Source: Antedon mediterranea
Taxonomy: Eukaryota; Animalia; Echinodermata
Direction of reading: 5' to 3'
Length of the DNA stretch: 64,000 nucleotides
Assembly (NCBI RefSeq): GCF_964355755.1
Contig: NC_092671.1
Location: 2,046,001-2,110,000, forward strand
Numbering within the stretch: position 1 is the stretch's first letter; every line of letters begins with the position of its first letter. Shown piece by piece: positions 22,701 through 49,101 of this stretch. The position numbers were made by a program, and so were the translations under genes. The notes beneath the pieces are model-generated. The model worked only from the letters and a program-made list of their open reading frames with translations. It did not search any database and was not told where the DNA came from.

Positions 22701-25700
22701 GCAAATATCCAATCCTATATTTTTTATATTTCGATTGATTATGATTTGATTTTGAAATGGCATTTGAGTTTCAAAATATAGTTTGTTGATTTAATAATAC
22801 ATTTAAAAAAATTTTTTCAGCAATTTTAATTCTGTACTTAACGAACATCTTATTACTAAGTGATAATAATGCCACCGCTCTGTTTCACACGTTTGTCATG
22901 TTGTGTTATTTTACACCGCTGATGGGTGCCATGATAGCAGATGGATTCCTTGGAAAATACAGGTACTGAAGGCCTACAATTGATATAACTCTAAACAAAC
23001 ACATAAAATGCATTGCAAACACTTCCAAAAACATGACAATTGAAGATGGATAAACTAGACTACATTTTAATTACTTTTATAAACTGCACCATTTGAAAAC
23101 ATGGATGCATTATACAATTACATTCTTAGTATAAATAAGTTTGATCTAATGCATGTAACTCTCTTTGTAGGACAATCCTGTATATCTCATTTGTGTATAT
23201 GTGTGGTAGTGCTTTGATGTCTCTCACAGCTCTACCACCCCAGACAACTGGCAGCCCAGAAATGTAAGTAGTATTATTATCATCATCTAAGCAACTTTTC
23301 ACTAAATTTATTAAAGACACATTATGAGTAAATGATTCAAAGCCTTTGTATGCCACATATTGATTTATATTTGATTTAATTTTTTTTTGTATTTGTCTAT
23401 TTCATATCTAGTTTATACCTTGATAAACCAATTGTAGCCATATCTCTTCCAAGCAAGATACCTAAAAGTTCTAATAATACTGAACTAATCCATGAATGTT
23501 GGTTTGTGTAATTTCTCCAAGTCACAACTAAAAATAGGAACTATATTATTTTATTCTAAATAATAAATTATTTTGCAGTGTTGGCCCAATGATTGCCCTT
23601 CTTTTAATCGCAATTGGTACCGGAGGGATCAAACCATGTGTGTCAGCATTTGGGGGTGATCAGTTTATCGGTGGTGAGGTAAGAACACAACAAACAAATT
23701 TAGGTAGAAGTTTAAACCTACTCATGCATAAATAATTGTTTATACAGCGCCCTCTATAGATTTAATATACTGTATACTGTATTATTATTATTGTACTGCG
23801 TTTTCAATAAAAAATCTTTTGACTCGTAAAGCATTGAGAAACTATTTTTTTGTCAGAATTATGTGCGAGAAAAGATTTGTAAACATGCGAGACAATTTAT
23901 TGAGTTGTTAGAAGTGTAGTAACTTTTCTTTTCTAAACCTATTTAATAGGTGGAAATGCTACAGAAATTCTTTGCTGTGTTTTACTTTACAATCAACGCT
24001 GGTAGTGTTCTATCAACTTTCATTACACCAATTTTAAGGAGTGATGTCCAATGCTTTGGAGAAGACTGTTATTTCTTAGCCTTTGGTGTTCCAGCAGTTT
24101 TAATGTGTATTTCATTATGTAAGTGATTTTACAATGGTATATGTGTACTAGAGCACCCACAGTGTTTGGATCTTGGAGTCTAATATGATTTGTAAATGAC
24201 AATTGGGACCAATATGATATCATAGAAAATGGTTTATGGAGAGTTATTAGCATAACATTTCTTTTTCTTCATTTCAGTTATATTTGTACTTGGACGAAAG
24301 AAGTATAAGCAATTCCCACCAACTGGTAACATTATAGGGCAAGTCATTAGCGCTATATTTGTAAGTACTGTATGCCTATGTAAGTACTGTATGCCTATGT
24401 AAGTACTGTATGCCTATGTAAGTACTGTATGCCTATGTAAGTACTGTATGCCTATGTAAGTACTGTATGCCTATGTAAGTACTGTATGCCTATGTAAGTA
24501 CTGTATGCCTATGTAAGTACTGTATGCCTATGTAAGTACCGTATGCCTATGTAAGTACTGTATGCCTATGTAAGTACCGTATGCCTATGTAAGTACTGTA
24601 TGCCTATGTAAGTACTGTATGCCTATGTAAGTACTGTATGCCTATGTAAGTACCGTATGCCTATGTAAGTACTGTATGCCTATGTAAGTACTGTATGCCT
24701 ATGTAAGTACTGTATGCCTATGTAAGTACCGTATGCCTATGTAAGTACCGTATGCCTATGTAAGTACCGTATGCCTATGTAAGTACCGTATGCCTATGTA
24801 AGTACTGTATGCCTATGTAAGTACTGTATGCCTATGTAAGTACTGTATGCCTATGTAAGTACTGTATGCCTATGTAAGTACTGTATGCCTATGTAAGTAC
24901 TGTATGCCTATGTAAGTACCGTATGCCTATGTAAGTACTGTATGCCTATGTAAGTACCGTATGCCTATGTAAGTACTGTATGCCTGTCTTTAATGAGGAA
25001 AAGGTGAAAATAGGTAGTTTACAGTGAGCCTTCTAAAGCTCTGTCTACACTATCAAACTTTATGTGATGTACCATGATGATGTCATACCACTACCATAAT
25101 TGGGCAAATCACTACCATATTTGTGCACATCACACTTTTTTGTCAAACTAGTTTGATAGTGTACACAGAGGTCAAGAAAGCATATACTGTAAATCAAGTT
25201 AAATGTATCAGTTGCTTTTATACAAGAAAGTTTTGATTTTTACCGAAAGTAAGAAAATAAAAAAAAAAAAAACACAAACATTTGTAGAATAAATAAACTG
25301 TTATGATAACAGTATTCTAATCTACTGATAAATGTACTGTAAATGTTCTGTAAATTTTCTGGTAAATGTACTGTAAATGTTCTGTAAATGTTCTGGTAAA
25401 TGTTCTGATAAATGTACTGTAGCATTGTCAAAATATTTGATGTTCTTTTTGTACTTTGCAGTATGCATTAAAAAATCGATTTGTTAAAAGGAAAACAGAT
25501 ATTACAAAAGAACACTGGATTGACTGGGCAGATGATAAATATGATGTAAGTAAGACTATTTACCTGAATAAACCAACTTTAGCCAATGATTTTCCACGAG
25601 AAGTACACCCCTATAAAGTAATGGAACAAACCAAAATGTCCACCATGTTTTCTATTGCATCATCTTTATCTATGAAGCTACATTTACTTGTTCTGTTTCA

Positions 25701-28700
25701 TACAGAGTGGAAGACGGCACCATTTTGTTAAATAATGGAATCTTATATACGGAATTGAATAATGTCTTCCATTGTATGAAATGGAACAAGTTAAATGTAG
25801 CTTGAAGTAGATGAGGTTTTTTTTAATCCAGAAAATAATCTGTGCGGTCATATTGATATTTTGTTTATTTTTTAAATTTAAATACCATGGTAATTATTTT
25901 TAATTTGTGTTTCAGGCTAAGTTACTTACTGACATAAGGAATCTATTCCATGTTTTATTTATGTATTTACCGCTGCCAATTTTCTGGGCGTTGTTTGACC
26001 AGCAAGGGTCGCGATGGACACTTCAGGCAGAACACTTAGATGGTCAACTGGTGAGTTGTGAATTTTTGTTTCATTTTTTGTAAATAAGAAATATTTTTTG
26101 GCTTAATGAGTATCCTTCATGTTAATCTTGTGATTTACATATAGAAATGTTTCCCATTGGTGCATTTGTTGTAAATTGTGTACTTATTTTCTGATTGTTT
26201 ATAATTTTATATATTTCAGGGTAATTGGAGAGTTAAACCAGATCAAATGATGGTATGTAATACAGATTTTACTGTATTTTTTTTAGAGAGATAATTTGAT
26301 AAAACCAGCAAAAATACAAGCATGATTCCCAATATAGAAATATATAATATAATAAAAACATTCTCTCTCTCTAGCTGGTTTACTTTATTGTTTGATTTAG
26401 CTTTTTGCTTAATTTATTTGTATCTCCATTAATACCAACCACTGATACCCACAGCATTGTAATTTTTTCAGTGTTTATTTTATTTGTATCTTCATTGAGT
26501 TCAAGCCACTGATACCCACAGCATTGTCATTCTTTTCAGTAACTTGCCTTTATGATTAACATATTTATAACATAATAATATCAATGTTATTTCCTTGTTT
26601 AGGTTTTTAACCCAATATTGATAATTCTGATGATTCCTTTATTTGAAGTCGTTATATATCCATTGATACGTTTCTTGCGGCTCCCATGTCGCCCTCTACA
26701 GAGGATGGGTGCCGGTATCTTCTTTGCTGGATTGGCGTTTGTGATTGCTGGGTTTCTTCAGTTGAGACTTGACGTAAGTTGGTAATAAAACGAGGTAACA
26801 GTTGATGAGGGTCAGAATGATAGAAAGCATTTACACTTTTCCTGAGTTTGTTCGATTTAAATTGTAAAAAAATAGAGAAATTAATTCCTTTTTATCACTT
26901 GTAGAGCAATGAATTAACTTTCCCAAAGTCCGATGAAGGAATGATTAAAATCATAAATGCTGCCCCCTGTAACCTGGATGCTGAGCTTAGAGGGGATACG
27001 GACCAAGTACTTGGACATCTGGCCTTTGCTAATGTAAGTAATTATTAACCATGGAGTAATAGTAAGTAAGAGTTGTAATACTTTAATATATTAGTTTATA
27101 CAAATATTGTAGATCATTTTCTTTTTTTTTTCATTTCTGGTAATATTGAAAATTAATTGTTCTAATTGCCATTTTTTGTGTTTTAATGAATGAATTTCAG
27201 ATTTCATTTTATGATATATTATATTTGAATCGCTTATATTTTTTCATCATGGGCATGAGAGGAATACAGACCTATATGGATTCAGTTTCTATTTTGTGAT
27301 CTTAGCTATGTCATTTCTCCAAGGCTATAGGATTCTGTTCCCTTTTGTATTTTCTGCTAATTAACCTTGTTTTGTAGTTGCTGTTTTTATTCGTTTTTAT
27401 GTTTTTTTAAGCAATTCAAGTCACTTCTAAAATCTCAGCTGTTTTAATAATTCTTTTCGTCTTTTAGTGCTATGAGACATCAGTAAACATCACTTTATAA
27501 AAGTTTGTTAGTATTAATGAGAATGAGAATAGGATGAATTAAAATAATACTAATTTCTATTTGTTTTTTGTCTCACCAGTCTTCAGACCAAACCATTCTA
27601 CCATTAAACAACTACACCGTAACGTTTCTACCACAAAACTGCCCTCTAAGTGATACATCTGTCTACGTACCAGAATTAACAAGCGAGGAAGCTGATGTAG
27701 CAGTTGTTGGGTTGTTTAACCAATCAGGTGTCTTACAATTTGAAACTAGACAATTCAAAGGACAGATAGTTAAACCACATCGAGCCGATGCCTTAATCAA
27801 GTGAGTGTTATAAACAGGATCAGAAAACTTGAACATGACATTGGGTTGACCTTTAAGTGTTCATTTAATTTTATTCATCAAAGAGAAAAGAAAAATATCA
27901 TTAAAAATTTTAGACTTAAATAAATTAAAAGATGAAAAGGTCCATCAACAAAAAGCTAAAAGCTTGTATGTGGTTGATGACCTAAAAAACTTAACTAAAC
28001 CATAAAAGTCAAAAGAACATATTGAACTTGACATTTGGTTGACCTTTAAACGTGGATTTACATCTGACATGTATGGGTTTCATCCATGGTACTCAATATT
28101 TAGATGGCGCTTTACTAGTCGGTACATCAGTTACACTTTTTATTTCAATGCCATCTTTCTGTTACAGAAAAGAAAACAAAAATTATTTAGGAGAAGATCA
28201 TATTATAAGTTTTCTTTCACATTGCATCACACATAGTTTGCTATACTCAAAAAGAAAGAACAGAAGATTTGTTTACATTGATCTTGTATTCCTTTTTAAA
28301 ATTAACTTTGAAATGAATTTAATCAATTTGTAAGCATACATCTTTGATTTGTTGGTACCCATGCTACTATGTTAAAGCCTGTGCATTTGTTAAATTTGTA
28401 ATTTGTTTTTTTGCAGTGTTGTGTATGTCATAGAACCTGATATCCTGACAAACATGTCTGTGATATTAGAGAGTGATAAGAATGCCTACACCATTCCTTT
28501 TGAATTCTTTAATGCATCTGCCTTTGTGGAGATTGTTCCAGATACGTAAGTTCTAATTTGAAGCTTTTTTATTTGATAAGACCAAATTAATGAATTCTGT
28601 GGCGAATCCAGGATTCTTAAATATGAAGTTCTGAACTTAACCTAATGTCGTATCTTGTGCATTGCGAAAGATGAGTTCAATTTTCGACGACCTAGGACTT

Positions 28701-30715
28701 ACACTTATTGGTTGTGGACATAGAATCCACTAGAAAATGTGTCGTATAGGAATCGTGTCACAATGCCACCACATGCACAAAATGAAGTAAAATGGCATAC
28801 GAGTTCCTAGGTCATCAGAATTCTTTAGCTTTCAAATATTAAAGATACTGCATAATAATAAAGAAAAAGGCATGCTAGTTTTATGTCTTACTGAAAGGAA
28901 ATAAAATAAACGAAAGAGGATACATCTTAAAAATTTTGTTTTCTTTTGATACATTTTAAAAAATGTTAATTTTAATTGTAGGTATACAGTACTAATCCCA
29001 TCTCAGTCACCTGATGACAATAAAACTCACGAAGAAGCTAATATAAAACTAATAGCTGAAAATGGAGCTATATATACAATGGTTATCCAATGCAACGAGA
29101 CACTGTCACTGGGTTCATGTCAGGTGTGTTTACAAGATTCAAAACGCAAGAATTTTATATTTTTTAAAAATTGGCGCATTCAATTTTTGGGTGGAGCTAT
29201 TAACATTTACCGTTCCATTCAACAAACAGTTACTCGATTTTTAACATACACTGTACATTGTTGTCCTGTCAATATGTTAAGATGTCAAATGTCAACATGT
29301 CAAATGTCAACATGTTGAGACATCAAATATCAATTTCATTTCATTTATTCGTCTCAAAACAATGAACAAAACAATAAAATACACAAACATAATAAATATC
29401 AGCCAGAACATGAGACAGGGCACTCAAAAAGTGAACTAAATCACTGTCAGGTGGGGACCCTTAGACAGGGCACCCCAAAAGTGAACTAAATCACTGTCAG
29501 GTGGGGACCCTTAGACAGGGCACCCCAAAAGTGAACTAAATCACTGTCGGGTGGGGCCCTGTACATAAAAACAGTAGAAAAAATACATTTTAAGATGTCA
29601 AAAGTTGAAATGTCAGAAGTCAATATGTTTAGATGTGTGTGCTTATTGTATTGATAATCATTTATTGTTGTTGTTTTTCAGCCAATCATTGTGGTGCATG
29701 TTGACATCAACCCAAACACCATCTCCATATTCTGGCAGATTCCACAATATTTTGTGATCACTTTTGGCGAGATTTTGTTTTCTGTAACCGGCTTAGAATT
29801 CTCATATTCTCAGGTTTGTTACAATCAAATAATTATAGTGTTAAAAGTTATAATTATATTTTTTTTACAAAATGTTTATGATGAGGAGTGTGACATTCTT
29901 GCGGAGAGAGAATAAATAATATTATAGCTGTATTGTACCTTTGTATTGTAGGCCCCATCCAGTATGAAATCATGCGTGCAGGCTGCGTGGTTGATGACGG
30001 TAGGGTTTGGTAATCTCGTTGTTGTCATTGTAGCTGAGAGTAGAATTGTTGATAGTCAGGTAAGAGCTTTGATAGCAATACTTTACACATTACTTTACAT
30101 TTGAGATAAATAAATTGTTATTGCACTGTCAAAACTCAGAATAATCCTAATTTATTTCTTAAAATATTTCAAATTCATTTCTACAGTGTAAAAAATATGA
30201 AATCATATATTTTGGGCTAAATTTTTGGAAAGTTGGCTGCATTACAGTATCTTACAATACAACATCACACTCAGCTTTTGAGTCGAAAAGTCATCCTGTG
30301 ACCCACTTTGATAGTTGACAGTTTGCATCCACTCATTTTGTTATTTTTCTGTTTGTCTGGAAATTTAATAAAATAAAAATGAGCAGAATGACTGTTAGAC
30401 TCAATAGCAGTGTAGTCAAGAAGAGCATAGTAAAAATGAAATTAACTATACATAAGTAACAACTCTACTTTGATTTTTAACACTATTGAACTTTTACTAT
30501 CTTTTTTGTAACAGGCCATAGAATTCTTTATTTTTGCTGGACTTACTGGTGTAATCTTATTGATCTTTATTGCAATGGCACTACGTTACACATACATCAC
30601 CCCATCTGTTCCAGAGACTACAGACTTAACAAATTTAGTAGACGATAAAAACCAAGCAGAAATGTCTTTGCGAGACCCAGTGGCAAACGTAGAAGGAAAG
30701 AGTTATCAAGAATAA
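10737..30715 (+). CDS. SLC15A1/2: SLC15A1/SLC15A2 (PepT1/PepT2)-type proton-coupled oligopeptide transporter, 20 exons, about 774 aa
   Basis: Exons 10737-10788, 15246-15284, 21751-21818, 22210-22303, 22821-22962, 23171-23263, 23579-23678, 23950-24118, 24278-24360, 25462-25545, 25916-26050, 26220-26252, 26603-26773, 26905-27033, 27580-27800, 28417-28545, 28982-29123, 29682-29813, 29952-30059, 30515-30715. All are GT-AG and phase-compatible. Motifs: NEFCERFSYYGMR (ExxER), GAMIADGFLGKYRT (PTR2_1), GTGGIKPCVSAFGGDQF, FYFTINAGS (PTR2_2), WALFDQQGSRWTLQA, QIPQY..GEILFSVTGLEFSYSQAPSSMKS. Large extracellular loop as in PepT1/2. The first three exons are less certain. Confidence 0.93.
12219..13697 (-). 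mobile_element. Helentron-associated non-autonomous element (HINE/DINE-1/Pearl-like)
   Basis: One end has AACTAG, the palindrome AATTCGTCA-CTA-TGACGAATT and AGGTTATATGCAT. The other end has an (AAAT)n microsatellite followed by the hairpin AGGTTATATGCAT-ATC-ATGCATATAACCT. A/T-rich insertion site without TSD. Confidence 0.7.
14597..14878. repeat. 23-24 bp minisatellite, about 12 copies
   Basis: GTTCATACTATGGTATAA(A)GCATT in tandem. Confidence 0.95.
15540..15810 (-). mobile_element. tRNA-derived SINE with a Deu/Nin-like conserved core
   Basis: Minus strand: AGCGGTTAAG (A-box end), GGTTCGAGGC (B-box-like), then CTCGGATAAGGACTATAAACCGTAGGTCC..GCACTTTAAAAAACC..GAGTAGGGG. A fragment recurs at about 31730-31750. 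Confidence 0.65.
17015..17146 (-). mobile_element. tRNA-derived SINE head
   Basis: Minus strand TAGCTTTGTGGTTAA (A box) and GGTTCAATCC (B box); related to the plus-strand copy at 53455-53570. Confidence 0.6.
20273..20513. mobile_element. Small TIR element (about 50-bp TIRs)
   Basis: GTCTATTCCGTGCCTAGCTTACCTGGATAAACCGACAAATGCC versus GGCATTTGTTGGTTTATCCAGGTAAGCTAGGCATGAAATAGAC; a similar end lies at about 8190-8232. Confidence 0.7.
24361..24985 (+). repeat. 19-bp minisatellite GTAAGTAC(T/C)GTATGCCTAT, about 33 copies, starting at the exon-9 splice donor of the SLC15 gene
   Basis: Directly visible; the first unit begins at the first intron base, 24361. Confidence 0.97.
29335..29560 (-). repeat. 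Probable LINE (L2/CR1-like) 3' tail with a roughly 49-bp unit in triplicate
   Basis: GACAGGGCACCCCAAAAGTGAACTAAATCACTGTCAGGTGGGGACCC occurs three times; minus-strand tail AATAAATGAAATGAAA. Confidence 0.5.
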
Positions 30716-32849
30716 ATGTAGTTAATTTGTTTAAATTGAGTAAAATTTTATTCTTTTGTTTGAGAGTAAAAACATAATTTTAAGCTTGTTCTATATACAA
30801 GCTTAAAAATGCTTGAGGCTTATAATATGCTTGCCTAAATATTTTTGGTTGGTGTAAATATCAGATCAGCTATCTATGATTACATCAGCCATTTATTCAA
30901 GCCTGTAGTGGGGAGGGGAGCGTAGAGGGTTCAAATAAACCCCCTTTTGCTTGTAGTGCCCTTTTCAAATAGAGACCAGAAAGTAATGATAAATAGGCCT
31001 AATTAGCCTAGCTTGTGACGATTTTTGCCTGTTTATTGGAAAAACAAACTCATAAGTTGTGAAGATGTGCGAGACTGGTAGATACTGTAGGTAGATAGTA
31101 TGCTATACTAGAAGTATACATATGAACTACCAAATACTCAAAACTTTAATAGAATAAGCCTAAGTGTATTAGTAAGTTTTAAATGATTTTACGGTGCTTT
31201 TAGAACGTTCTTATATAGTGCGTGGGCTTGTGTTAGGGTTGTTTCTTGGGACCACATGCAGTGGTGCTAGATGGTTTAAGTAAATGTACACAGTGTATAT
31301 AAACTGGTTATTCCAAGTATATAACAGGGAAGAGTCTTAAGGTGCATTCGTACTTGGTCTGTTTCAAAATGTTTTGTGAAACAATATACAGAATTAAACG
31401 ATGAAACAGAGCAGTGTAAATGAAGCTTTATTCTAGCCTGCTGTAAGTAGAGACAAGGAAATGTATTTTGCTCCATTTTATATATTTTTTTTTACGTTTG
31501 TTATGTTGAAGAAAAGGTTTTTTATTATTGTAAATTTACTTTTCAAATGATTTTACTGATTGGCTGAAGTAAAACATGTTTTTTTAAAGGGTTGATTTGC
31601 TTAATTTTAACTTTTGTTTCAAGTGATGTCTTCATGTTTGAAGGTTGTTCACCATGGTTTGATGGTGATACTAAGAGGTTAGTAGGAACAGAAGGCCCCA
31701 TTACTATTTTCGACTGGGGCTGATCCTAACTGGGGTAATCCCCTACTCGTGCATAAAAGTCACATTTTACAAATTGAGAACATTAAAAAATGTATTCTTG
31801 GACAAAAGGAATAATTTTACATTGTCTACTATTAAATACATACAGTAGTAAATGGTAGGTCTTCAGATAAACTTTAAAAAAATAGAGGGACACAAATGTT
31901 CCTGTTTTTAAAATAGAGGTAAACAAATGTTCCTGTTTTTTATATAAACCAACTTTATATGTTATATTATTAATACCTTGAAAATATGAGTTTGTTTATT
32001 TTTTTTAATGCTTTGTTTTGTATTTTTAATAAATTTAAAATCTTCTTCAGTAATTTTTTGTTACAACAGTAAATAATATTTGTATGTGATGTATGCTGTG
32101 TTTGAAAATAAGCGGATTTTGTAAAAATACAAGGGTATAATTTATATACAACATGTGGCTTAAATAATAGAATGGTGGAATTATTTCTTCCATGTAAAAC
32201 GTACTTAACTAAAATGTTTGGGTGAATCATGGTGATGGTTTTATTCTAAATGTTAAGAATGTGTAATAATAGTATTACTGTGGTAGATGTATTCTAATTA
32301 TATTGAAATAAATTATATTTATTCACAATAATGTTTTTGAAGGCGTTTATTTATTTTAACTTGAATTATATCCAAACATACAAAGCTGTACTTTCATTCA
32401 ATGTAACATTTCCATTTATATTTACAATCGCAATATACTTTTGCCTGTAAATTTATTTATAGATATCATATGAATAAAGATAATCGTAGCTTTGAAATAA
32501 AAAAATAAAAGGAAGAAGGCAGGATCCCAGAAAGTTAAGGAGCTGGTGTCGGGCCTGCCTGAGACAAGTACAAAGGGACAGGGACAAACTGGGATAGAAG
32601 AACAAACTGCGGTAATATAGTAATCCCAATTTCATGTCATCTCATGTAATAATAATTTTGAAGCTACACCTTTACAACTGTGGCACACGTTCATACACGG
32701 TGCGTTCTTAAAATAAATAGATAGACAACAAACAGATACAAAAATAATACAACAAACAGATAATAAAATAATAATAATGTAATATATTGACGCAAGTAAT
32801 GTCATTCAAAATATTTATCAAATTAGGAAATTGAGCTTATCAACAAAAA

Positions 32850-35498
32850 TTAGACATCTGTATTTAGCAGGTACTTGAAGAGTGATACCAACGGCATAAA
32901 CACATCTGGCTCTACCTTGCCATCGACAACAAGTCCTTCAACAAATAAAACATTTTTGTCGGGGTTAAAGAATGAGGGTAAGCATCCACTCTGAATACAT
33001 TTGTCCATATGTCCAAGAATTCTTTCAGCCCATTTCAACGAAATACTGTTGCCGACATTTTCTGCAGTTTCTTTAAGATTGGGATCGTTTTCACGTTTAG
33101 CTATCTCAAGTTCATGAAGAAAACAAGTTTTAAGGTGGTAACTGGTTATGTATTTTTTTAATTTTCTTCCGCTGTCGTGGTCTACGACCTTTGGAAAATA
33201 TCCAGTTTCAGAAAGAGATTTCAGGATGATGTATCCTTTTTTGATATGATCTGGTACAGACTTCATTATGTTTTGTTCGAGATAACTATATGATATTCTA
33301 TAAAACATGGTATAATCTTTCACATGGTACCTGTCTGGTGTTTTGAAAACCACCGAAAACATGGGATCGTTTGTGCATTGTTGCAGTAAGCATGAGTGGC
33401 CAACAGAAAAACCTTCTGGTGTCCATTCAGGAAACCAAATTGTTGGAACAACATCTACATCTATCTTGAAGGTCTTTGCTTTGCGTCCAAAATAGACAAA
33501 GCTCAAATTTGAAGTGCCACAGAAAATTTCATCAAGAAATTTTACACAAATAAGTTCATTTTGATCGTCCACAATATGCCTGACCTCTTCATTTATTAAG
33601 TTGTACAATTGACGATTCAACATCTTACAGTCTAGGAAATTGTCTTGGTCAAGATACTGAGAAAACTGTTGTTGAAACTTTTCATCTCGTAGACGAAGTT
33701 TAACAAACCCTTCTGGAAAAGCAGTAGATTCAACTGGAACGAATGCATTGCTGAATTCTATCAAACCCCAAATAAAATCAAATTCATCTCTGACCTGTAC
33801 TTTTGTACCTTCAAAAGAGCTTCCAGCCAACCGTAACTCACAGCGAAATAATGGATTTCGAACAGCCATTCTGTCAGCCACAAGGTGCATCAACTTGTCC
33901 ATTTTCTCTGGAACAATGGAATTGTCCTCAATGTCATAAAACATTCCCATATTAGTCAATTTTAACATGATATTGATAGACTTGCAAAGAGAAGTCTTGT
34001 GCTTGTCGACATGCTTTATATATTCGTCAATATCAACTGTACCATGTTCTTTTCTGATGTATTTTAAAAGGGGGCAACAAAATAGCGGATCATTTTCATT
34101 GCATACCAAAACAGGATTTTGTAATTGCAGTGGTTTTAGTGTTTTGAATTTAGATAGTAATTCTTGAAATTGGGGGAAGTGCAAAATTTGTGCGAGATCA
34201 GTGGGTGATTCATCATTGTGGTCTTTAATGCACACGTCACAACGAGCTCTTAACAAAGTCTGACAAACTGGTAGCTTTCTATGCCATACGGCCCAGTGGA
34301 GTGCTGTCGAGCCATAATTATCTCTTACATTGATGTTATGGCCATTTTTTAAATACCAGAAAATTAAGACATGTGCCATATTGTAAATTCTACATGCCCA
34401 ATGAAGTGCAGTTGCTCCTGTATTGGATTTTCTTGTGACGTCAGCACCCAGCTCTAGTATGGTTACCAAAATGTCCAAGTCACCAATAGTTGTAGCCTGA
34501 TGAAGTGGCGTTACACCATACACATTAGCTTGATTTACATCTACACCTTCTTCTACCAGCATTTTGATAATTTCACTGCGAAGTTCAAAATCCTTTACCT
34601 TTTCTACAGCATGGAATATTTCATTTTGTCCCCTGTGATCTTGTACATTCATCTTTATTCCATATTTCATCAACTCTTTGATAACTTCACAGGTTGTATC
34701 CCCTGATGTTAAGGCGTGGTGCACAACTGTCTTCCCCTCGTAGTCTAACTCATTTATTTCAGCACCTTTGTCTATCAGTAACTTCAAAGATGTGGTGAAC
34801 CTTTCAAATTGACTGGTACATGCAAGATAATGCAAAACGGTTTCACCAAGACTGTTTTTGGCTTTGATGTCTGCACAATTCTCCAACAGAAATTGTATCG
34901 AGCGATGACATGCAATTTCACCAATCACATGAAGCGGTGTATCATCATTGTTGTCCAGACAATTTACATCTAGCCCCATTTCCAACAGCTTTTTCAACAT
35001 ATCAACCCTGCTATCATCAGCATGGCGTTTGCTGGCTATGTGAAGATAGCTTCCACCAGTTCTAAGCTCTTTCTCCTGTATATTGCTTACTGTTTCAACT
35101 TTCTCTAACAAATAACTGTACTCCAATTTACCACTATACATCAAATGCATAAAATCTGTCTGGCCATTCCTATTTTTGTGGTTTATATTTGCTCCGTTTT
35201 CCAACAAAAACTTCAAAATGTTCTCACTATCCGAACTCATGCTGTGTACTGCTTTGAAAAGTACTGACTGCTTCAAAACATCTTTGTGGTTGACACTGGC
35301 TCCTTTCTTTACAAGTAACTTAACTGTGTCCAGACTTGAATGTTGGACCGCACTGCAGAGTTCATTGCTTAGCAAGTCTTCAACACCAGTTGATGTGAAA
35401 TCTTGACGGTCAAGCTTGGAAATGATTTCCTCTATTTTCTGTAAATCATTTCCCAGAACTGCATCCTTTAAAAGTTTCTCACCTGTTGCTTTATCCAT
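32850..35498 (-). CDS. Ankyrin-repeat / cGAS-like receptor (Mab-21 nucleotidyltransferase, cGLR) fusion protein, 882 aa, intronless CDS
   Basis: Uninterrupted ORF; the track start at 35513 is a GTG and the first ATG is at 35498. About 12 ankyrin repeats (DTPLH, ETVLH, VTPLH, ATALHWA, STALHWA; G.DVN turns) precede a Mab-21/cGAS fold with LAGSSFEGTKVQVRDEFDF, IDVDVVP, RISYSYLEQNIM, ITSYHLKTCFLHE and CLPSFFNPDKNVL. Confidence 0.92.
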   Translation of the reverse strand: MDKATGEKLLKDAVLGNDLQKIEEIISKLDRQDFTSTGVEDLLSNELCSAVQHSSLDTVKLLVKKGASVNHKDVLKQSVLFKAVHSMSSDSENILKFLLENGANINHKNRNGQTDFMHLMYSGKLEYSYLLEKVETVSNIQEKELRTGGSYLHIASKRHADDSRVDMLKKLLEMGLDVNCLDNNDDTPLHVIGEIACHRSIQFLLENCADIKAKNSLGETVLHYLACTSQFERFTTSLKLLIDKGAEINELDYEGKTVVHHALTSGDTTCEVIKELMKYGIKMNVQDHRGQNEIFHAVEKVKDFELRSEIIKMLVEEGVDVNQANVYGVTPLHQATTIGDLDILVTILELGADVTRKSNTGATALHWACRIYNMAHVLIFWYLKNGHNINVRDNYGSTALHWAVWHRKLPVCQTLLRARCDVCIKDHNDESPTDLAQILHFPQFQELLSKFKTLKPLQLQNPVLVCNENDPLFCCPLLKYIRKEHGTVDIDEYIKHVDKHKTSLCKSINIMLKLTNMGMFYDIEDNSIVPEKMDKLMHLVADRMAVRNPLFRCELRLAGSSFEGTKVQVRDEFDFIWGLIEFSNAFVPVESTAFPEGFVKLRLRDEKFQQQFSQYLDQDNFLDCKMLNRQLYNLINEEVRHIVDDQNELICVKFLDEIFCGTSNLSFVYFGRKAKTFKIDVDVVPTIWFPEWTPEGFSVGHSCLLQQCTNDPMFSVVFKTPDRYHVKDYTMFYRISYSYLEQNIMKSVPDHIKKGYIILKSLSETGYFPKVVDHDSGRKLKKYITSYHLKTCFLHELEIAKRENDPNLKETAENVGNSISLKWAERILGHMDKCIQSGCLPSFFNPDKNVLFVEGLVVDGKVEPDVFMPLVSLFKYLLNTDV

Positions 35499-36408
35499 GT
35501 TATGCAGATTCACTTAGATGTGATAAACTTAACGTGTGCATGCCTTCTGGAAGACTATTATTATTAACATATTGTGCATAGTTGTTCATGAGCTTTTGTA
35601 TGTCACCTGGTGTAGATATCTGCAAATAAATAAAACATTTTATGCTACAGTAGTTATTTTGCTAATAAGCCAAATAAGTTAGATAATTGAAATAAAACTC
35701 CTTTTTTAATATACCACTAGATATTCACTTTGACAAAACCTGTTCATTTTGACTTTTTAAATTATTATTTTTGTTAACTTTATTCAAATTATTTTTAAGA
35801 AGCTATTTAAGACTAGACAAACACATTCCTCTTTCAAGGAGGCCTGTTTTTATTTTGAAATAAACTCCTTGAATAATAAATTGTTTAATCATGTCATAAC
35901 GTTGGTAAATAAAAGACATTTTTGCATACGAGGCCAGGAGGATTGTGGCGGTGCATGACTAAGTAGGCGGAGTTACAAATTGGCATGATTGGTCAATTCA
36001 TAATTTTATATATGCACCGTGGTGGTGGACTATGTGGCTTCTTGCTTTTTAAAACTGGATTCCACACCAGGTTCCTCCCTCCTCCCATCTACTCATGGAG
36101 GAAAACTATTATCCATGGTCTACCGTCTTAAAATCGGAAGTTTCCCATTTCTTAGCCAATGGCCCATGATTAATTGTATACGGCAGCATGCGCCGCCATG
36201 CACCCATTGGCTAAGCGTGGAGATATCTTTGGCCTATTATACAGTAGCCTTCATCCATGGAGGTATAAAAATAGATACCTCCATGCTTCATCCAAACCAA
36301 ACTGTAAAGAAGGACGGTAATGTTTTCAAATCAACCGGTCATAGGCCTAGCTACACTAACCAGTAATCCTAGTGTTTAATAACAAGAAGATTAGAATTGT
36401 TAACTTAC

Positions 36409-36520: not shown

Positions 36521-38739
36521 AAAACAGACCCACTTCTTTCTCCTTTTCATTTGACAGGCGCCCTCATTATGAGTACATACAGTAGTTTATACAGGCAGTT
36601 GTTTTATATAATTCCCTCGTGGGATCTCAAATGTCATAATACACCTCAAAGCAGTCAATATCTGTATAATATTAATGGTGCAATTAAATGAATAATTGTT
36701 AGGTAAATCATAGAGATATTATATATTCATTATAATATCTCTATGGATAAATACATAAGGCTCAGTCGCCCACTGTTGGTCTGCATCCCACATCAACAAC
36801 AAAATTGATCAAAACGGTTAAGGTATTTATACATATTTTAATGCATAATAGATTTCTAAATTGTATACATTTTGTACAATATCATAAAATACAGTAGTAG
36901 TATGCAACTTAGAACACATAATAACAACATTTTATAGTGCTGCTGCTGTGCCAGTGTATTTATGCAACAGAATTCATAATTTAATCTATAAAATTCTAAG
37001 ATACATTATATAATTATAGACTTTTACAAAAGAAGGAAGTTTGAAGTGTGTCGTAAAACCTAACATGGTTTCTTAAATGAACTGTGGAGCTTTTTAAAAA
37101 CGTTCAAAGGTCAACAAATATAAACGGATGAGCATCACCATCTATCACGTTATTCGTTTTGACATTTGTACACTACTCATTTACAAAGACTCTCTTTTGG
37201 TGGTCTGAAGATCTAAAGTCCTCTGATCTCTCATTTTCTCAATGAGAAAAACATTATTTATTTTGTGTATAATAGGGGAGATGGAATACAACAAATTTAT
37301 TTTAAGCATTGCATTGAAACCTGGTTAAATGCTAAAAAGGGTACAAAGACCCTGGAGAAACTATTGGCATTTATTGAACTGTTATCCTACAAAACATGAA
37401 AATAGTGAATATTTAACCATTATAACCAAAATTAGTGTGGTCTTTGCCTGGCACTATAAAGTCATTAGTGCTTCAATAAAGTGAACGCTTAAGAAAAGTT
37501 GTGGTCATTGGCCACAATACAGGATCAAAATATCATTTGGGCAAGAACAATAGTGCCACCAATGTAACAATATACAATCTAAAAACAAAGCTGTATTCCT
37601 GAAGGATACTATACTATTGAAAGTCCGTTATGCGAGTTGTGTAGACAACAGGAGTTCATCAGGTTTTATAAACATATGAACAAGTAATGTATTTATATTT
37701 AGAAATAAATACTTTTATTATACCCATCCCTTGAATAAAATCAGATCCAAAATAATAAATCATTTTACCTCAGTCCTGAATTTGGTGCTGAATGATTAGC
37801 GAATTTATGTTTTCACGGTAATCCACTAGACTATGCGCCGCATCGAGAAAAACATATGAACATCCACAGAATGATTGTAATTACATTACCAAGCAGTCTG
37901 ATGGCGCTTTGTGAAAATGAGAAGTCATTAATATTAACTACTACGAAGGCAGGTTTAAAGAATTAGATAACAGGGCTGTTAATGCATCTACAAGATAACA
38001 TTATGATGACATACAAAGACATGGAAATCTATAAAACCAAAGCATATGGTTCCATCATTACAAACAAATAATAATTGTATATAGAATAGAATAAATTTTA
38101 ATAGCATTATACATCACTTATGGATATATTAAAAATGTAATTCTACTACTACTATTAGTATTACCACACGAGTATAATTGCTTTTATATACACACTATGT
38201 ACATTATATAATAATAATTTCTTTTTACAATTTGTACAAATGACAGTGCAGCACATTTCCTATGGCTACAGTACAGTAATAAAATCTATTTTGATGATTT
38301 ACTTTAACCCAACATATCGAAACTGTAATCTTTTTGTAAATTGGTCGATAAATAAAATTTCAAAGAACATATTTACTATCACAATAAATCTGTATAAAGT
38401 ATAAAAAAATCATGACAATTTGATCATATTTCTTTATGTTTGACATTAGAAATACATTATATAAAACAAATCTTGTAGACAATTATGTAAACTATTGTAT
38501 CAATAATCAATATTTTTATCAATAATAAATTTAACAAATCAAATTCATGATTATCATTAATATAGTGTTCATTTTGCAATTTTAAATATATTTTTCTAAA
38601 TTATTGTATATATATAAATAATTTTAGATTTCAATCTTTAATTTGTTTGTATTAGTGATTGCAAAATAAGAATTTAAATGTAAAAAATGTATTTAGTAAT
38701 CAATAATTGTTTGAAAACATAACAATAAGTGTAAGCTTA

Positions 38740-39622: not shown

Positions 39623-42600
39623 TCACATTTGGTCTGGCTTTCCAATCGTCATCACAGATGTAGGTATTGACCCAATAGTGGTTTCTTCCACAGCCATGAT
39701 GATGTCATTATCTTCGTTATCGTTGTTTGCACGTACAGCTGCAGACTTTGGCTTTTGATGTGTCTTAAGATGTTTCGACAAATGATCACTCCGCATAAAT
39801 CTCTTTGGACACAGCTCACATGAAAATTTCTTTTCACCTTAAATTAAAAAGATACATTAATAGTTAAGTAGATTTAGGTGCAATAATATGTCACATGATG
39901 TTCAGCATCTTTTCAAAGGAGTGTGTTGGTTAAGTGAATGTGTTATGCGCGATTTGAACGATTTGCGCAATTTGAAATTGCGCAAAAAAAATCCTTGCGC
40001 AATTTGAATTGAAACATGTGTTTCAAATTGCGCAAGCAACGTATTAAATTGCGCAAGTAATCTGCAAATTGCGCAAGGTTTTTCGACAGATTGTGAAATC
40101 ATGCAAACCCATATTTTTATAGTAATTTCTAAGAATGATTCAAAATTAAAGATAAATATCGCATTTCCTTATTTTAGTAGTGCAAATATTGTTATAAGTT
40201 AGCATACCGTCGAAGAACCGACGAAGGAAAACGAAGCGGTGGTGTTCCACCAGGCGGGCGCGGCGCGGGCGGCCGGCTATACTACTCTAGCCTAGCTAGG
40301 GTCTGGACTACTGATACTGACTAGGTTACATGGCCTAGCTTAAACTAATATTAAAAACTTAAAAAGTGAGTATTAAACATTATCTTCATTGAAATGGTCT
40401 TATTTATATAATAAAATACTAAATTTTAAACTCCTCTGCCTAGGCCTAGCCTAGCCATGTATGGGAAAATTTACAGTTCGTTTTCAAATTGCGCAAAGGT
40501 GTCATATTGCGCAAGAACTATCTTGCGCAATTTAAAATTGCGCAAAGATTTTCTTGCGCAATTTGAAATTGCGCAAGTTGATTGCGCAATTTGAAATTGC
40601 GCAAAAAAATCCTTGCGCAATTTTAAATTGCGCAAGAATTCTTTGCGCAATTTCAAATTGCGCAAGGATTTTTTTGCGCAATTTCAAATTGCGCAAATCG
40701 TTCAAATCGCGCATAACAAATGCACTGCCATGCATCAAAAGACAAGGCTTGCTACAAACATGGGTGCTTCTACAGTACCCATGCTAGGATAGTAGAGCCT
40801 ACCGAAAATGGCACATGTATGCACATTGGAATGTGAGGGGTTATTTTTGGTATTCAAAACAAATAATAGGGAAATCTCAATTATCAGGAGATCTGGTCTT
40901 GATTCAAACAAAGATCAATATTGGAAAGTACACAGGAGCACTCAAACAAAAGTATGCAGTGACAAAATATGCAGTGATTTGAATAGTGACTAAACCATTG
41001 TTGGTATTGGCGTACACTTTTGTGTCTGGCTCATTACCACAGGTTAAGTATGACTTGAATTGCATGCAAAGACTGTACTAACCAGTATGAGTCCTAATAT
41101 GCCGTTGCAGCTCATCAGAGCGAGTGAACCTCTTTCCACAATACAACCACTGACATACAAAAGGACGCTCCCCTGAATGCCAGCGCAAATGAGCTCTCAA
41201 GTGACTGGTCTTGCCGTACATCTTATTACAACCAGACACGTGACAAATATGCTGTTTCTTTTTACCATCCGTTCTGAAAAGATAATAGTAGGATATTCTA
41301 TTGTTCATAGTTAAACTGTACTGTTAGGGGTTTAAAGGAACTAGAACATGTTATCTAGGAATACTCTACAGGTAGGGGTTAACCAAAATTAGGAAACAGT
41401 ATCTACTTTTAGTCTGGATTAACCAGATGGAACACACACATTTATTTTTAGAAATTACCGGTAGGGTAGCAAATGGAGCATGGTATCTTTGAATATTAAA
41501 AAGGATAGTGGAATCAGCATTAAATGCATTCTAATCTCATTTAAAAATTTTACAGCCAAAACATGATTGTTGTACTGTAGCTTTCAATCCTTTTAAGAAA
41601 CAAAACTATCATTCTCATAAAAACACATTATTGATAATTCCCTCTTCCTCCCCTACCCCTCCCTCCTTATAATATCAATCTTTTAGCTACTGTACTGTAC
41701 CTTGAATCGCCATTTTTACAGTTCGGGCAAGTACAAGCCACCCTCTTCAATCTCTTTCCTGGATTTACTGGCACATTAGCATCGTCCGTTGCCGGGGCGG
41801 CATATTGAGTAACTACTTGGCTAGCATCTTGGATGGTCACTTGTTGCTGCGTCCACTTTTTACTGTCCAACGTCTGAACAATTTGAGGAGCTAAAAACAA
41901 ACAATAATATGTTAGTGTTTTACACTATAATACTGTAGGCTGATGATTTGTATGTATCTTTGGTTTAGCTATTAAATAAAAAAACATTTGATTCAATAAG
42001 GTACAGTATAATGAAATACAATAATTCAATTTTAGTTACCAATTTAAATAAAAAAGTAAAATGTTCTGATTACTAAAGACAGTCTCTGTATAATAATTAT
42101 TAAAACACTAAAATCTCAAGTCTAAGCCTAATAATTTAAATGGAATACTAACAGTAACATGAGCTAATATTTACTTAACATTTAAGTGGACGTAATTACT
42201 ATTTAACTAGTGTACGTGCCTCATCTGCGTATGTTAGCACATACTTATATTATAATACAAATTCAACGATGGTAAGACCAAAATTTCTTTCTTTTAAATT
42301 TTTTTATCAAACAATCAATAATTTAAAATACAAGATTATTTTAAACAAATTTATAGATAAAATTAATAAACTAATTCAGTATCTTCCATTAAAATTTTAA
42401 TATTAATAAACTCATAATTTTTACTCAATTTGTAATTCATAATTTACACAAGAGATAAAAATGTTATGAGATACAGGTATAACAAAAACCATCAGTTTGA
42501 TTTACATTTTAAAATTTGTAGGGAAAAAGCAATTGAATGAATTGCGTTTTAAAATTGCTTTAAAAATACTACATGATTGTATCTAAGTCACAAGTTAACA

Positions 42601-45600
42601 CTTGATTCTGCAGGCTCTACATTTTGAACAATACATATGATTTCTAGCTCTTCTACACTTATACCCTTTTTACACTATCGACTGAGAGAGGAACACGAGT
42701 TGAACTCGGAGGCAATTTCCATTTACACTAGCCAAAAAAACTGCGAGATAAACTTGAGTTGCGCCCATTTACACTACATCGATCACCCCGGTGCTGTCAA
42801 TCAAACCACTATTGCAAGCGCACACCACGTGGAACTTAACTGACTATGGTTCAACTTTAAACGTTTAAACACTGGAACATATCAACAAATCTCATAAAAA
42901 CATAATAATCTGAATTTACACATAATTTATTTAATTTTGAATGTAGTCCAGTGTAATATTTTCTTTGTGGCTATTAAGATTATCATTTATTATTTTAAAA
43001 ATTAGGGCCTAACAATTATTTTTCTTTTTAAAATGACTGCATTTCCGCCTTGTAGACTGTAGTACATTAAATAGGCCTTAAATTGTTAGGTTGGCGTAAA
43101 AATAGGGTAGGTACGGTAAGTATTTAAAATAAAAATGTATTTTTTAATTAGCATAAACAATGTATCAATGAAGGAAAATTATTATATGGTACTTTTTCAG
43201 TTCCTAAAAAGATATCGTTTTCATCCATTGAGATGTCAGTATTATATATATTTTTCCCTTTTTCAATAATTAGGCCAACATAAAATAGGTCAGGGTAGAG
43301 TTACACCAATATTACATTATTTTAGGCTTTCTGGTAAGGTACAGAATGCACACGAACAATTTCAATATTTTCAGTAGAAAAGAAAAATCAAAAATTTGTT
43401 TGTGCCTTTAAAAAAAAAATAACAAACAGCACAATATATCGTACAATTATTATTGTTTAACAGCTCGGTGTTGAACCACAACCACTTCGTGTCTCCGGTG
43501 TAGATTCGACTACACCGGAGAAGGTACACCGGAAAACATTCAGCTTTGTTTCACCCCGGGTAGAGCACACCGGGGTGGTTGGATTTTCCCATTTACACCA
43601 GTCAATAAAAACCACAACACCGGCGTTTAACGGCCCGGTGTACTAACAACCGCGGGGTTACACCGCTGTTACGGTGATAGTGTAAAAGGGGTATTATATA
43701 TTACGCCAATACTAGCTAGTCATTAGTTTAAAATTGAATAATACTAGCTCTCTACAATAGTCATTAGTTAAACATTACACTGTACATTGTCACAATACAA
43801 TGGCTGCTACCAATGTAGCTCTAGCGGGTATTGCTAAACACCGCAAACCTCCAAAAAAACATAGCAAACCCCATCGAACCAACATAAAAGTGATTGAATT
43901 ATGTAGTGTACAACCCACTGGGTATATCCATGTAAAAAAAATATTAAATTTCTACGGTTAACTACTTATTTTTGGGGTAAAACCTCATTTTTTGGTCAAA
44001 AATGATTGCTAAACTCCGCAAACCTCCAAAAAAATATAGCAAACCCATGTAAAAAAATTATTAAATTTCTACTGTTAACTACATATTTTTGGGGTAAAAC
44101 ATCATTTTTTGGTCAAAAATGATTGCTAATTTTTGACCAAAAAATGATGTTTTATCCTCAAAAAAGTAGTTAACAGTAGAAATTTAATAATTTATATACC
44201 CAGTGGGTCGTACACTACATTATTCAATCACTTTTGTGTTGGTTCGGTGGGGTTTGCTATGGTTTTTTTTTAGGTTTGCGGGGTTTAGCAATCATTTTTG
44301 ACCAAAAAATGATGTTTTACCCGAAAAATAAGTTGTTAACAGTAGAAATTTAATATTTTTTTTACATTGATATACCCAGTGGGTTGTACACTACATGATT
44401 CAATCACTTTTATGTTGGTTCGGTGGGGTTTGCTATGTTTTTTTGGAGGTTTGCGGGGATTTGCGGGGTTTAGCAATACCCGCTCTAGCTATTATTAGTT
44501 TAACACTGTAAATTGTCACAACAATACAATGGCTGCTACCAATGTAGCTCTAGCTATTAGTTTAACACTGTACATTGCCACAATAATGGCTGCTACCAAT
44601 GTAGCTCTAGCTATTAGTTTAACACTGTACATTGTCACAATACAATGGCTGCTACCAATGTAGCTCTAGCTATTAGTTTAACACTGTACATTGTCACAAT
44701 ACAATGGCTGCTACCAATGTAGCTCTAGCTATTAGTTTAACACTGTGCATTGTCACAATACAATGGCTGCTACCAATGTAGCTCTAGCTATTAGTTTAAC
44801 ACTGTGCATTGTCACAACAATACAATGGCTGCTACCAATGTAGCTCTAGCTATTAGTTTAACACTGTACATTGTCACAATACAATGGCTGCTACCAATGT
44901 AGCTCTAGCTATTAGTTTAACACTGTGCATTGTCACAATACAATGGCTGCTACCAATGTAGCTCTAGTTATTAGTTTAACACTGTGCATTGTCACAATAC
45001 AATGGCTGCTACCAATGTAGCTCTAGCTATTAGTTTAACACTCTACATTTGAACAATACATGAATACTTTAGGTAGCTCTATTTACCGTATATTTCGGTG
45101 TATAAGTCGCCCTTTTGACACGCAAATTTGACCTCTAAATTAAGGGTGCGTCTTATACACCAAACATAAATGCCTCACTACACAGATTGTACATAGGCCT
45201 ATGCTATCATCACCTCGTTTGCTACTGCTAGGCCTAGCTACAGTAACTAACTAACGTAACGGCAACCTGCTTCTGCCTAGTTTTCAAGGCATTTTAGCAT
45301 GATGTTATACTAAATATGATGAAAAGATTTGTTCATTATGGCACTCCCATAAAATTTCATTTGTAAACGTTTACGTACGATTAGAATAGTATTTATTTAT
45401 ACAGTAGTTATACGCACGATCGCCGTACCCCCAGCGGAGACCTTTCTTGGTGGCCACATGGTGTATTTATAGTTATACGCACGACCGCCGTACCCCTAGC
45501 CTAGCGCAAACCCTTCTTGGCGGCCACATGGTGTACGGTATTCGACTAGTATATTCTCCAGTTGATTATAGCATGGACCTAGCGTATACACTTCTCGGAT

Positions 45601-48600: not shown

Positions 48601-49101
48601 TCACAGTTTTAACGGGCGAACCGTCCACTATTTGAGCAGTTGTTCCAGTAGGCAACTGTGTCGCGCTCGCAAACCGAACGGGAACGGGCAGTCCAGTTTG
48701 AATGGGTTGAGCAATGGACGCCTGTGGCACAGCGGTAACAATATTTCCTGTTGCTGTTGTTATGAATTCACCAGCCTGATTTTGGCCTAGAATCTTTACA
48801 GTTGTTTGAGGAGCATGAGTTGTTGTTCCCCCTGTCTCCGCAACAGTTCCAATCTTACTACATGTGGCTGCTAACATCGCGAGGGGGGAAGGCTGGATAT
48901 CCTAAAAAACAAGGGGCGGGAACAAAGAAGTGGGTGTGAAAAAGCGGTATACACACAAGGAAGTTTTCATGAACGAAAGACAAACGATATGTACACATTA
49001 AAAATAGGTATAACCTATAAATAATTTTTTTTAATTACCTGTGATGCACTGGAAGGTTGAATATAATCACTCTGTGGTCTAGCAATGGCAACTGTAGCCA
49101 T
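39623..49101 (-). CDS. SP1/2/3/4-like: Sp1-4 clade C2H2 zinc-finger transcription factor, 5 coding exons, about 716 aa
   Basis: Exons 49039-49101, 47410-48901, 41701-41890, 41083-41273, 39623-39837. Sp box [18 protein letters not shown]; Q/S/T-rich activation region; buttonhead box [10 protein letters not shown]; three fingers [67 protein letters not shown]. Confidence 0.96.
39941..40718. mobile_element. Ginger-like non-autonomous DNA transposon, copy 1 (last Sp intron)
   Basis: TIRs TGTTATGCGCGATTTGAACGATTTGCGCAA / TTGCGCAAATCGTTCAAATCGCGCATAACA with a 4-bp TSD AATG. TGT..ACA ends plus a 4-bp TSD fit the Ginger superfamily. Confidence 0.85.
42662..43693. mobile_element. Harbinger-like non-autonomous element, family H3
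   Basis: TIRs TACCCTTTTTACACTATC / GATAGTGTAAAAGGGGTA with a TTA..TTA duplication; internal CCCATTTACAC repeats. Confidence 0.75.
43825..44482. mobile_element. About 660-bp foldback (near-whole-length palindrome) element inserted in a minisatellite unit
   Basis: CGGGTATTGCTAAAC..CGCAAACCTCC / GGAGGTTTGCGG..GTTTAGCAATACCCG, centre near 44125, CTCTAG on both sides. Confidence 0.85.
44490..45045. repeat. 59-bp minisatellite, about 9 copies plus one unit left of the foldback element
   Basis: TATTAGTTTAACACTGTACATTGTCACAATACAATGGCTGCTACCAATGTAGCTCTAGC in tandem. Confidence 0.95.
45086..45986. mobile_element. Tc1/mariner (Tc2/pogo-like) non-autonomous element
   Basis: TIRs CCGTATATTTCGGTGTATAAGTCGC / GCGACTTATACACCGAAATATACGG with a TA TSD; subterminal GGTGCGTCTTATACAC repeats. 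Confidence 0.88.

Follow-up and report, generated by a model that had tools for sequence, protein, structure and literature searches.

Proteins of the cGLR family that carry an E/D/D triad synthesise cyclic dinucleotides for STING. Oyster Cv-cGLR1 (8gjw), Sp-cGLR1 (8gjy), Tc-cGLR (7lt2) and Drosophila cGLR1 have no ankyrins and no zinc thumb; they are basic and activated by double-stranded DNA (dsDNA) or RNA (dsRNA). Vertebrate cGAS has a zinc thumb and a disordered N-terminus. RNase L, whose N-terminal ankyrins sense 2-5A, is a model for ankyrin-gated catalysis. MB21D2 and MAB21L1 have the same fold as single-domain proteins with a neutral groove and no thumb. Here, we describe a cGLR gene fused to an ankyrin array in the feather star Antedon mediterranea. 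It lies in a stretch of 64,000 nucleotides (nt) of AT-rich animal DNA, which was analysed as a whole and is called the window (assembly GCF_964355755.1, contig NC_092671.1, positions 2,046,001–2,110,000 of the forward strand).

The Antedon protein shares the fold, the GS loop, the triad and the missing thumb with the four invertebrate cGLRs named above. It differs from them in its ankyrins, in a near neutral to acidic catalytic domain with Q742 and I757 in the groove, and in sequence (~18% identical). Vertebrate cGAS agrees with it in fold, triad (E225/D227/D319) and pocket (K362, R376, S378, E383, K414); unlike the Antedon protein, cGAS has the thumb and K384/K411, and a disordered N-terminus in place of the ankyrins. 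As in RNase L, an N-terminal ankyrin array sits on an enzyme, but the array has 12 repeats and the effector is a nucleotidyltransferase. MB21D2 and MAB21L1 are 12–16% identical to the Antedon domain.

The architecture itself has been catalogued. Li et al. 2023 (bioRxiv 10.1101/2023.02.22.529553, PMC9980059) list an ANK fusion among the cGLR architectures; statements on this and the two other papers cited below refer to the accessible parts of each. Their Table S1 includes Anneissia XP_033111273, Mytilus coruscus CAC5425862, Acropora millepora XP_029195643 and Actinia tenebrosa XP_031557634. All four are members of the same family as the Antedon protein, with the same architecture, and were curated with complete active sites; the Anneissia protein is 66% identical to it over the full length. 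None of the four appears in the screened set in the accessible tables. A catalytic-domain search of 1.84 billion representatives gave 317 matches. Ankyrins were found in 115 of the best 150 (own profile) and in 108 of the 110 nearest relatives with a long N-terminus. The top ESM Atlas match was an Ank + Mab-21 cluster (score 0.99). The ANK-cGLR fusion is a common architecture, and the Antedon protein is a new member of it. The ESM Atlas matches at ranks 4, 5 and 8 were ankyrin arrays joined to an MTPAP-like nucleotidyltransferase domain, a second ankyrin-nucleotidyltransferase architecture.

Open reading frame, domains and active site

The gene is an open reading frame (ORF) that runs uninterrupted over 882 codons on the reverse strand. 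Its features are given below (aa, amino acids; pI, isoelectric point).

32850–35498, reverse strand: ankyrin-repeat cGLR, single-exon ORF of 882 aa (ORF scan and Pfam; colinear full-length relatives have 887–910 aa)
34128–35387, reverse strand: ankyrin array of 12 repeats, aa ~38–457, pI 5.9 (Pfam, secondary structure of the model, alignment)
33999–34103, reverse strand: linker module with invariant C466, D470, C475, H496 and H500, a candidate zinc site (alignment, predicted hairpin plus helices)
32853–33995, reverse strand: cGLR/Mab-21 nucleotidyltransferase domain, aa 502–882, pI ~6.1 (structure alignment, phmmer)
33777–33827, reverse strand: GS activation loop (G559, S560) and E572-F-D574 (alignment)
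33453–33455, reverse strand: third catalytic Asp, D682 (aligned to the Asp of DVDLVP in 8gjw; 20/20)
33219–33278, reverse strand: thumb-less groove segment E741–K760, with Q742 and I757 at the sites of human cGAS K384 and K411, and with K753 and K760 retained
33174–33182, reverse strand: D773-H774-D775, family-invariant, on a hairpin predicted in the helical lobe (alignment, model)
35500–35621, reverse strand: candidate splice acceptor (AG at 35621–35620) and open frame (from the sequence)

The original prediction had read the ORF as about 12 ankyrin repeats, a linker and a Mab-21 nucleotidyltransferase with an intact cGAS-type triad, and had proposed a candidate innate-immune sensor. The domain reading was confirmed. 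In the HMMER comparison, all three Pfam matches passed the curated cut-offs (Ank_2, E-value 4e-45; Mab-21, aa 562–746, 7e-11; Mab-21_C, aa 754–851, 7e-07). Twelve repeats were counted as helix pairs over aa ~38–457 in the secondary structure of an AlphaFold2 model of the 882-aa protein. This model was built from a 20-row alignment and had a predicted local distance difference test score of 86 and a predicted template modelling score (pTM) of 0.75. The quoted motifs were all in place: AGSSFEGTK (33801–33827), EFD (33777–33785), DVDVVP (33444–33461), SYHLKT (33126–33143) and LPSFFNP (32961–32981).

The homology to cGLRs spans the nucleotidyltransferase core and the C-terminal helix bundle, both in the Mab-21/Mab-21_C matches and in the phmmer alignment of the catalytic domain to both lobes of Cv-cGLR1 (8gjw, E-value 6e-06). 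The model of aa 502–882 was compared with 48,161 chains (VIA-align). The best structural match was Cv-cGLR1 (Z 26.2, root-mean-square deviation 3.6, 336 aligned), and mouse cGAS matched with Z 24.1 (root-mean-square deviation 3.5, 335 aligned). Further matches of the fold were Sp-cGLR1 (Z 23.1), Tc-cGLR (Z 22.8), MB21D2 (Z 22.6) and MAB21L1 (Z 18.9). The expected similarity of the model to cGAS and cGLRs was thus borne out.

The active site is intact across the aligned family. All 20 family sequences (alignment A1) share E572, D574 and D682 as well as the pocket residues K719, R734, S736, E741 and K760. The third Asp had been placed within DVDVVP. The motif was right, and of its two Asp residues D682 is the catalytic one; D680 is not, being Ser in the other 19 sequences. 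Its GS-x-E-x-TK-x-EFD motif belongs to the active cGAS type. Moreover, the cGLR motif of Li et al. 2023 is present, with G559-S560, the [DE]h[DE] element as E572-F-D574, and D682 as the third acid. The residue before GS is Ala, versus Q/T in the stricter motif, and the D574–D682 spacing is 107, versus the stated 50–90. Both features recur in the 66%-identical Anneissia protein, which sits in the curated list of the same authors. The intact cGLR fold and triad and the ankyrin fusion are supported, and innate-immune signalling is likely.

Contigs of a related organism span the cGLR locus at the same place. The comparison with this organism covered 40 of 126 difference rows, of which 35 lay in the ORF (32 codons changed, 19 silent). 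The ratio of nonsynonymous to synonymous rates was ~0.15–0.18, and none of the 40 rows altered a catalytic residue. The cGLR is under purifying selection between these close relatives. An in-frame 3-letter gap segregates at 35052–35244.

Transcription is plausible. Runs X8 and X9 carry a GT..AG joint of a neighbouring gene that run X5 lacks, and because of this spliced joint they behave as RNA. Overall, the gene is a real, intact and apparently unannotated member of a catalogued cGLR architecture.

Linker, ankyrin array and proposed control of activity

We read the protein as a ligand-gated cyclic-dinucleotide synthase and give this reading a probability of roughly 0.5. The ankyrin array would bind a trigger that is not a nucleic acid; a microbial or host protein is our guess. 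A zinc-bound linker would fix the array against the spine helix. Through this linker, the ligand-bound array would switch the catalytic domain on, and the cyclic-dinucleotide product would activate STING. Three STING genes are present in Anneissia, the other crinoid. We infer the sensor role of the ankyrins (needed for activation, and not only as a block), the zinc in the linker, a ligand other than DNA or RNA, the product and the STING partner. The low pI of the catalytic domain, the invariant Q742 and I757 and the conserved ankyrins and linker favour a non-nucleic-acid ligand that is read by the ankyrins.

K384 and K411 of human cGAS contribute to DNA binding. At these sites, the dsDNA-sensing Cv-cGLR1 has K/R, whereas all 20 family sequences carry Q742 and I757. 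The catalytic-domain pI was 6.1 in Antedon and below 8.5 in 19 of 20 family members (Biopython on aa 500–880), while nucleic-acid-sensing cGLRs were above 8.5 by the different method of Li et al. 2023 (PMC9980059). The Antedon domain lacks the high pI and, judged from its sequence, the basic groove of these sensors. Ligands of cGLRs beyond DNA and RNA are an open question raised by the same authors.

The segment between the two domains had been taken as a linker. It is present, but it is no plain spacer. Its motif Cys-x8-Cys-x20-His-x3-His (C466, C475, H496, H500) was invariant in 20 of 20 sequences together with D470, and the AlphaFold2 model predicts a hairpin and helices directly before the spine helix. 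In a wider 30-sequence alignment, the four Cys/His residues were complete in 12/12 family rows and in 10/18 more distant rows. Three of the remaining distant rows show a His one position past the first Cys site; the others are without the motif. Six of 36 rows had been left out of this alignment, having no GS motif under the pattern used. The strict linker pattern was found in 11 of 88 wider representatives. Judged from these alignments, the Cys/His motif marks a subclade.

The linker does not have the classical C2H2 spacing (C-x2-4-C-x12-H-x3-5-H) and gave no zinc-finger Pfam match. A zinc site of a non-classical kind is possible. It would lie N-terminal to the spine helix and so differ from the cGAS thumb. 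Few structure matches cover aa 455–500, which is not proof of a new fold.

Within the protein, conservation is highest in ankyrin repeats 5, 9 and 11 (0.75–0.77, versus 0.64 for the catalytic core). W367, W402 and W405 are invariant, with Trp in repeats 10–11 near the linker. This is the pattern expected of a binding surface. A Foldseek search with the full model gave only ankyrin proteins among the matches listed. The original prediction had drawn a comparison with RNase L. This did not go beyond the fold, as RNase L (Z 21.7) was a generic match to the array, one among many ankyrin proteins.

The prediction that there is no room for a zinc thumb was correct. E741 and K760 are 19 residues apart, versus 31 in human cGAS and 23 in Cv-cGLR1. 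The segment is 12 residues shorter than in human cGAS, where H390, C396, C397 and C404 lie between E383 and K414, and it holds no Cys cluster. The step from there to control through the ankyrins was not supported. Insect dsRNA-sensing cGLRs, Tc-cGLR and MB21D2 are also without the thumb (PMC8410604). As the thumb-less state is normal outside vertebrates, the loss of the thumb was rejected as evidence of ankyrin control and gives it no weight.

Assays bearing on the architecture come from one screen. Samples 84–87 of Li et al. are coral ANK-cGLRs, with an ankyrin-like match at aa ~12–346 and Mab-21 from aa ~452. Their domains were tested there without the ankyrins, with poly I:C and dsDNA as ligands, and none has an ‘active’ mark in the accessible tables. 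Of the 140 proteins in the screen, most were negative; among the 15 cGLRs that were active, 9 responded to nucleic acid and none has an ankyrin match in Table S2 (PMC9980059). The statement that no biochemistry of this architecture was known has to be narrowed by these four coral proteins. It holds for the full-length form: among papers that link ankyrins to cGLR, Mab-21 or CD-NTase proteins, a literature search turned up neither an assay on a full-length ANK-cGLR nor one on the Antedon family, most subscription papers being outside its scope.

Autoinhibition is an unlikely alternative mode of control. Here, the acidic ankyrin array would clamp the enzyme until a pathogen protease or a partner releases it, as a tripwire. 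The array is indeed acidic in all 20 family sequences (pI 4.9–6.0), the invariant Trp residues of repeats 10–11 stand beside the linker, and the whole-chain pTM of 0.75 suggests a partly fixed domain arrangement in the model. Removal of the ankyrins should then have released activity, and the unmarked ankyrin-less coral domains weigh against a simple form of this mechanism. A conserved, variable loop of the kind a protease might cut was not noticed either, though no search aimed at it was made.

A conventional sensor of dsRNA or dsDNA, whose ankyrins would do no more than localise the enzyme or recruit partners, is improbable. The share of nucleic-acid responders among the active cGLRs fits such a sensor, thumb-less cGLRs can sense dsRNA (PMC8410604), K753 is kept (19 K and 1 R among 20), and the predicted zinc module might offer a new binding surface. 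Against this stand the pI below 8.5 in 19 of 20 sequences, the invariant Q742 and I757, and the coral relatives that stayed unmarked with poly I:C and dsDNA.

A role outside immunity, in which the protein binds nucleotides as a scaffold or makes another product, in the manner of MB21D2 or Mab21L1, would agree with the shared fold, with a conservation unusually high for an immune receptor and with a family activity that is predicted only, but it is equally improbable given the active cGAS-type motif and the patchy distribution, tandem Mytilus edulis copies and fragmented copies described below, which speak for an immune rather than a developmental gene.

Several points count against the ankyrin-triggered synthase. 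An intact triad is no proof of activity, as MB21D2 has a putative triad yet showed no activity (PMC8410604). The activity, ligand and product of the family are predicted from sequence and model. The retained K753 and a basic Acropora domain (pI 8.9) may leave room for nucleic-acid sensing. The coral samples belong to another subfamily (motifs in common with P0134, ~25% identical to the Antedon query) and have no Cys/His motif; moreover, their negative results may reflect a failure of expression or of domain boundaries. At the level of the gene, two contigs of the related organism (runs X5 and X6) are 2 letters longer within 33073–34264, possibly a frameshifted allele. The ORF contigs of X8 and X9 have a low depth (2–6), similar to that on non-coding DNA. 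Finally, the Antedon cGLR is missing from a 15-billion-sequence collection, and the sequence and profile searches gave no near-identical match, although its Sp4 neighbour is present.

These proteins form a compact, single-exon and conserved family whose invariant residues in the ankyrin groove and the linker are defined, which makes them a good entry to the large ANK-cGLR clade. If neither the mechanism nor the transfer considered below holds, the Antedon protein simply adds a member to a family already catalogued.

Family distribution and origin

The tight family comprised 19 clusters with 43–66% identity. A profile search added one at that level, and the representative search a few more. Named hosts were limited to two crinoids, four Mytilus species, oysters, Pinctada, Mya, Acropora, Montipora and Actinia. 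No host is named for 11 of the 19 representatives; most of these grouped with named hosts, and the lineages P0006, P0012 and P0253 did not. The label ‘Actinia-like’ was given by eye against Table S1.

The tree does not follow the hosts. Crinoids and Mytilus formed a clade with 100/100 support in all four bootstrapped trees (one site-mixture model) and with 100 in the Shimodaira–Hasegawa-like approximate likelihood ratio test of a quick tree. Oysters and anthozoans grouped with 100/100, 100/99, 100/95 and 94/96. Approximately unbiased (AU) tests rejected a Mytilus + oyster clade (p 2e-56), a clade of all family bivalves (p 2e-40) and one of all family bilaterians (p 0.002); the tested groups were chosen after a first tree was known.

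Crinoid and mussel lineages have been apart for more than 550 million years. The path length was 0.49 between Antedon and Anneissia and 0.61 between Antedon and M. coruscus, so the crinoid and mussel copies differ little more than those of two feather stars. Crinoid and Mytilus copies (59–64% identical; Antedon versus Mytilus 59–62%) are nearer to each other than the copies of two oyster genera (Crassostrea–Saccostrea 0.77). The path was 1.55 between Mytilus and Crassostrea and 0.14 between two Mytilus congeners. Outside the feather stars, the nearest relatives known for the Antedon protein are those of mussels.

Two accounts of this pattern were weighed. A plausible one is that several ancient paralogs arose before the cnidarian–bilaterian split and were mostly lost, with crinoids and mussels keeping the same slow one. 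As a whole, the ANK-cGLR clade is ancient and rich in paralogs, and Mytilus and Pinctada hold two lineages each. The AU tests cannot separate paralogy from transfer. There is also a precedent in the mytilectins, which occur in mussels, crinoids and others in an equally patchy way and have been ascribed to ancient origin and loss (PMC10744619). Against this account, the past rate must have been far below the present one within Mytilus (0.14), oysters (0.77) and crinoids (0.49). The gene must also have been lost from all urchins, sea stars, sea cucumbers, gastropods and scallops that are named among the matches listed.

The other account, which we hold tentatively, is that the gene crossed phyla. 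The case is clearest for the lineages of mussels and feather stars, and those of oysters and anthozoans may be a second one. The crinoid + Mytilus clade, the short Antedon–Mytilus path and the rejection of bivalve and bilaterian monophyly point this way. Between the crinoids, the Sp4 neighbour shows 74% identity, and its N-terminal exon gave no mollusc match (2 matches among 7,995 scored candidates; low-complexity region), while the cGLR shows 66% between the crinoids and 59–62% between Antedon and Mytilus. The cGLR ORF is intronless in crinoid and coral. In Anneissia, separate contigs carry the cGLR (334 kb) and Sp4 (2.13 Mb), which hints weakly at a move of the cGLR.

Other results speak against transfer or do not bear on it. 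No carrier was found in viral contigs or prokaryote genomes; the metagenomes held six Montipora-like loci (91–94% to P0007) and ten generic ankyrin loci. The flanks hold host genes on both sides and no convincing repeat pair or target duplication, marks which an old insertion would have lost. The GC content at third codon positions (0.36) is inside the host range. Between crinoid and coral, saturation at silent sites (identical at 42 of 146, with 41 expected) makes them uninformative. The paralogs of the wider clade also count against transfer; the three lineages without a named host could fill gaps. The order Mya,(Mytilus,(Pinctada,oysters)) came from one tree and was not recovered in a smaller one, and the Pinctada model is without the catalytic core. 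Because of this unstable backbone and the incomplete model, no donor is claimed.

A literature search (cGLR with horizontal transfer) found no report of the crinoid–mussel pattern, and the accessible text and tables of Li et al. mention neither the Cys/His linker nor the discordant tree. If transfer is true, the gene would be a rare example of a working immune receptor that passed between animal phyla, and it would change the reading of patchy invertebrate immune genes. That both parts hold together, with a single-exon ankyrin-cGLR that crossed phyla and whose ankyrins gate catalysis on a non-nucleic-acid ligand through their own zinc module instead of the cGAS thumb, a mechanism that would be new among cGLRs, is doubtful.

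Mytilus edulis has two family copies (P0005, P0021) that are ~78% alike, with two clusters on one 1.9-Mb contig. Several contigs carry fragmented family copies (P0039–P0044). Both are signs of duplication and decay.

The locus and its neighbours

The neighbours were ordered by eye from translated exons. We take the order to be ANKIB1-like, SLC15A-like (forward strand), cGLR, Sp4-like and OLA1-like (the last three on the reverse strand). The exon at 4543–4740 (reverse strand) resembles what we presume to be the start of ANKIB1. The SLC15A-like exons, labelled by eye, lie at ~22800–32330 (forward strand) and end ~500 nt from the cGLR stop; their spliced joint 30056–30512 is present in runs X8 and X9. 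No second cGLR copy was found within the 64-kb window.

Over its four main exons, the Sp4-like gene (39626–49101, reverse strand) matches an NCBI protein of Antedon mediterranea with 99.8–100% identity, and the OLA1-like gene lies at ~52600–54460 (reverse strand). SP3 and OLA1 adjoin in vertebrates too, which suggests that the Sp4/OLA1 adjacency is an old deuterostome linkage. A fusion of the cGLR with the Sp4 gene was rejected, as all five Sp4 exons lie upstream of the cGLR and end at 39626. Bacterial or assembly contamination was also rejected: host genes flank the cGLR, the related organism has a copy at the same place, and the Mytilus copies lie on records of 105–132 Mb.

Upstream of the cGLR, the candidate acceptor is followed by 39 open codons and a stop 1 nt before the cGLR ATG. 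No spliced joint to the acceptor at 35620 was seen in the contig runs over the locus. The same segment (35500–35621) contains a 29-codon upstream ORF from 35589, which may regulate translation or be a coincidence. The coral locus L001 has instead an acceptor-like site 2 nt upstream of its ATG.

Several repeats were seen in the window. The 318- and 220-aa ORFs at 58415–59877 are not genes; they have no Pfam match and lie in a 30-bp minisatellite (~49 copies). A perfect 15-bp hairpin (36709–36745) and short, very high-copy repeats (36589–36700, 32641–32781 and 36166–36306) flank the cGLR and are possibly the ends of small mobile elements. A further repeated element, present in two copies (40089–40800 and 61464–62440), consists of a 31-bp ‘TTGCGCAATT’ tandem array and a GC-rich arm and showed a high depth in the contig runs.

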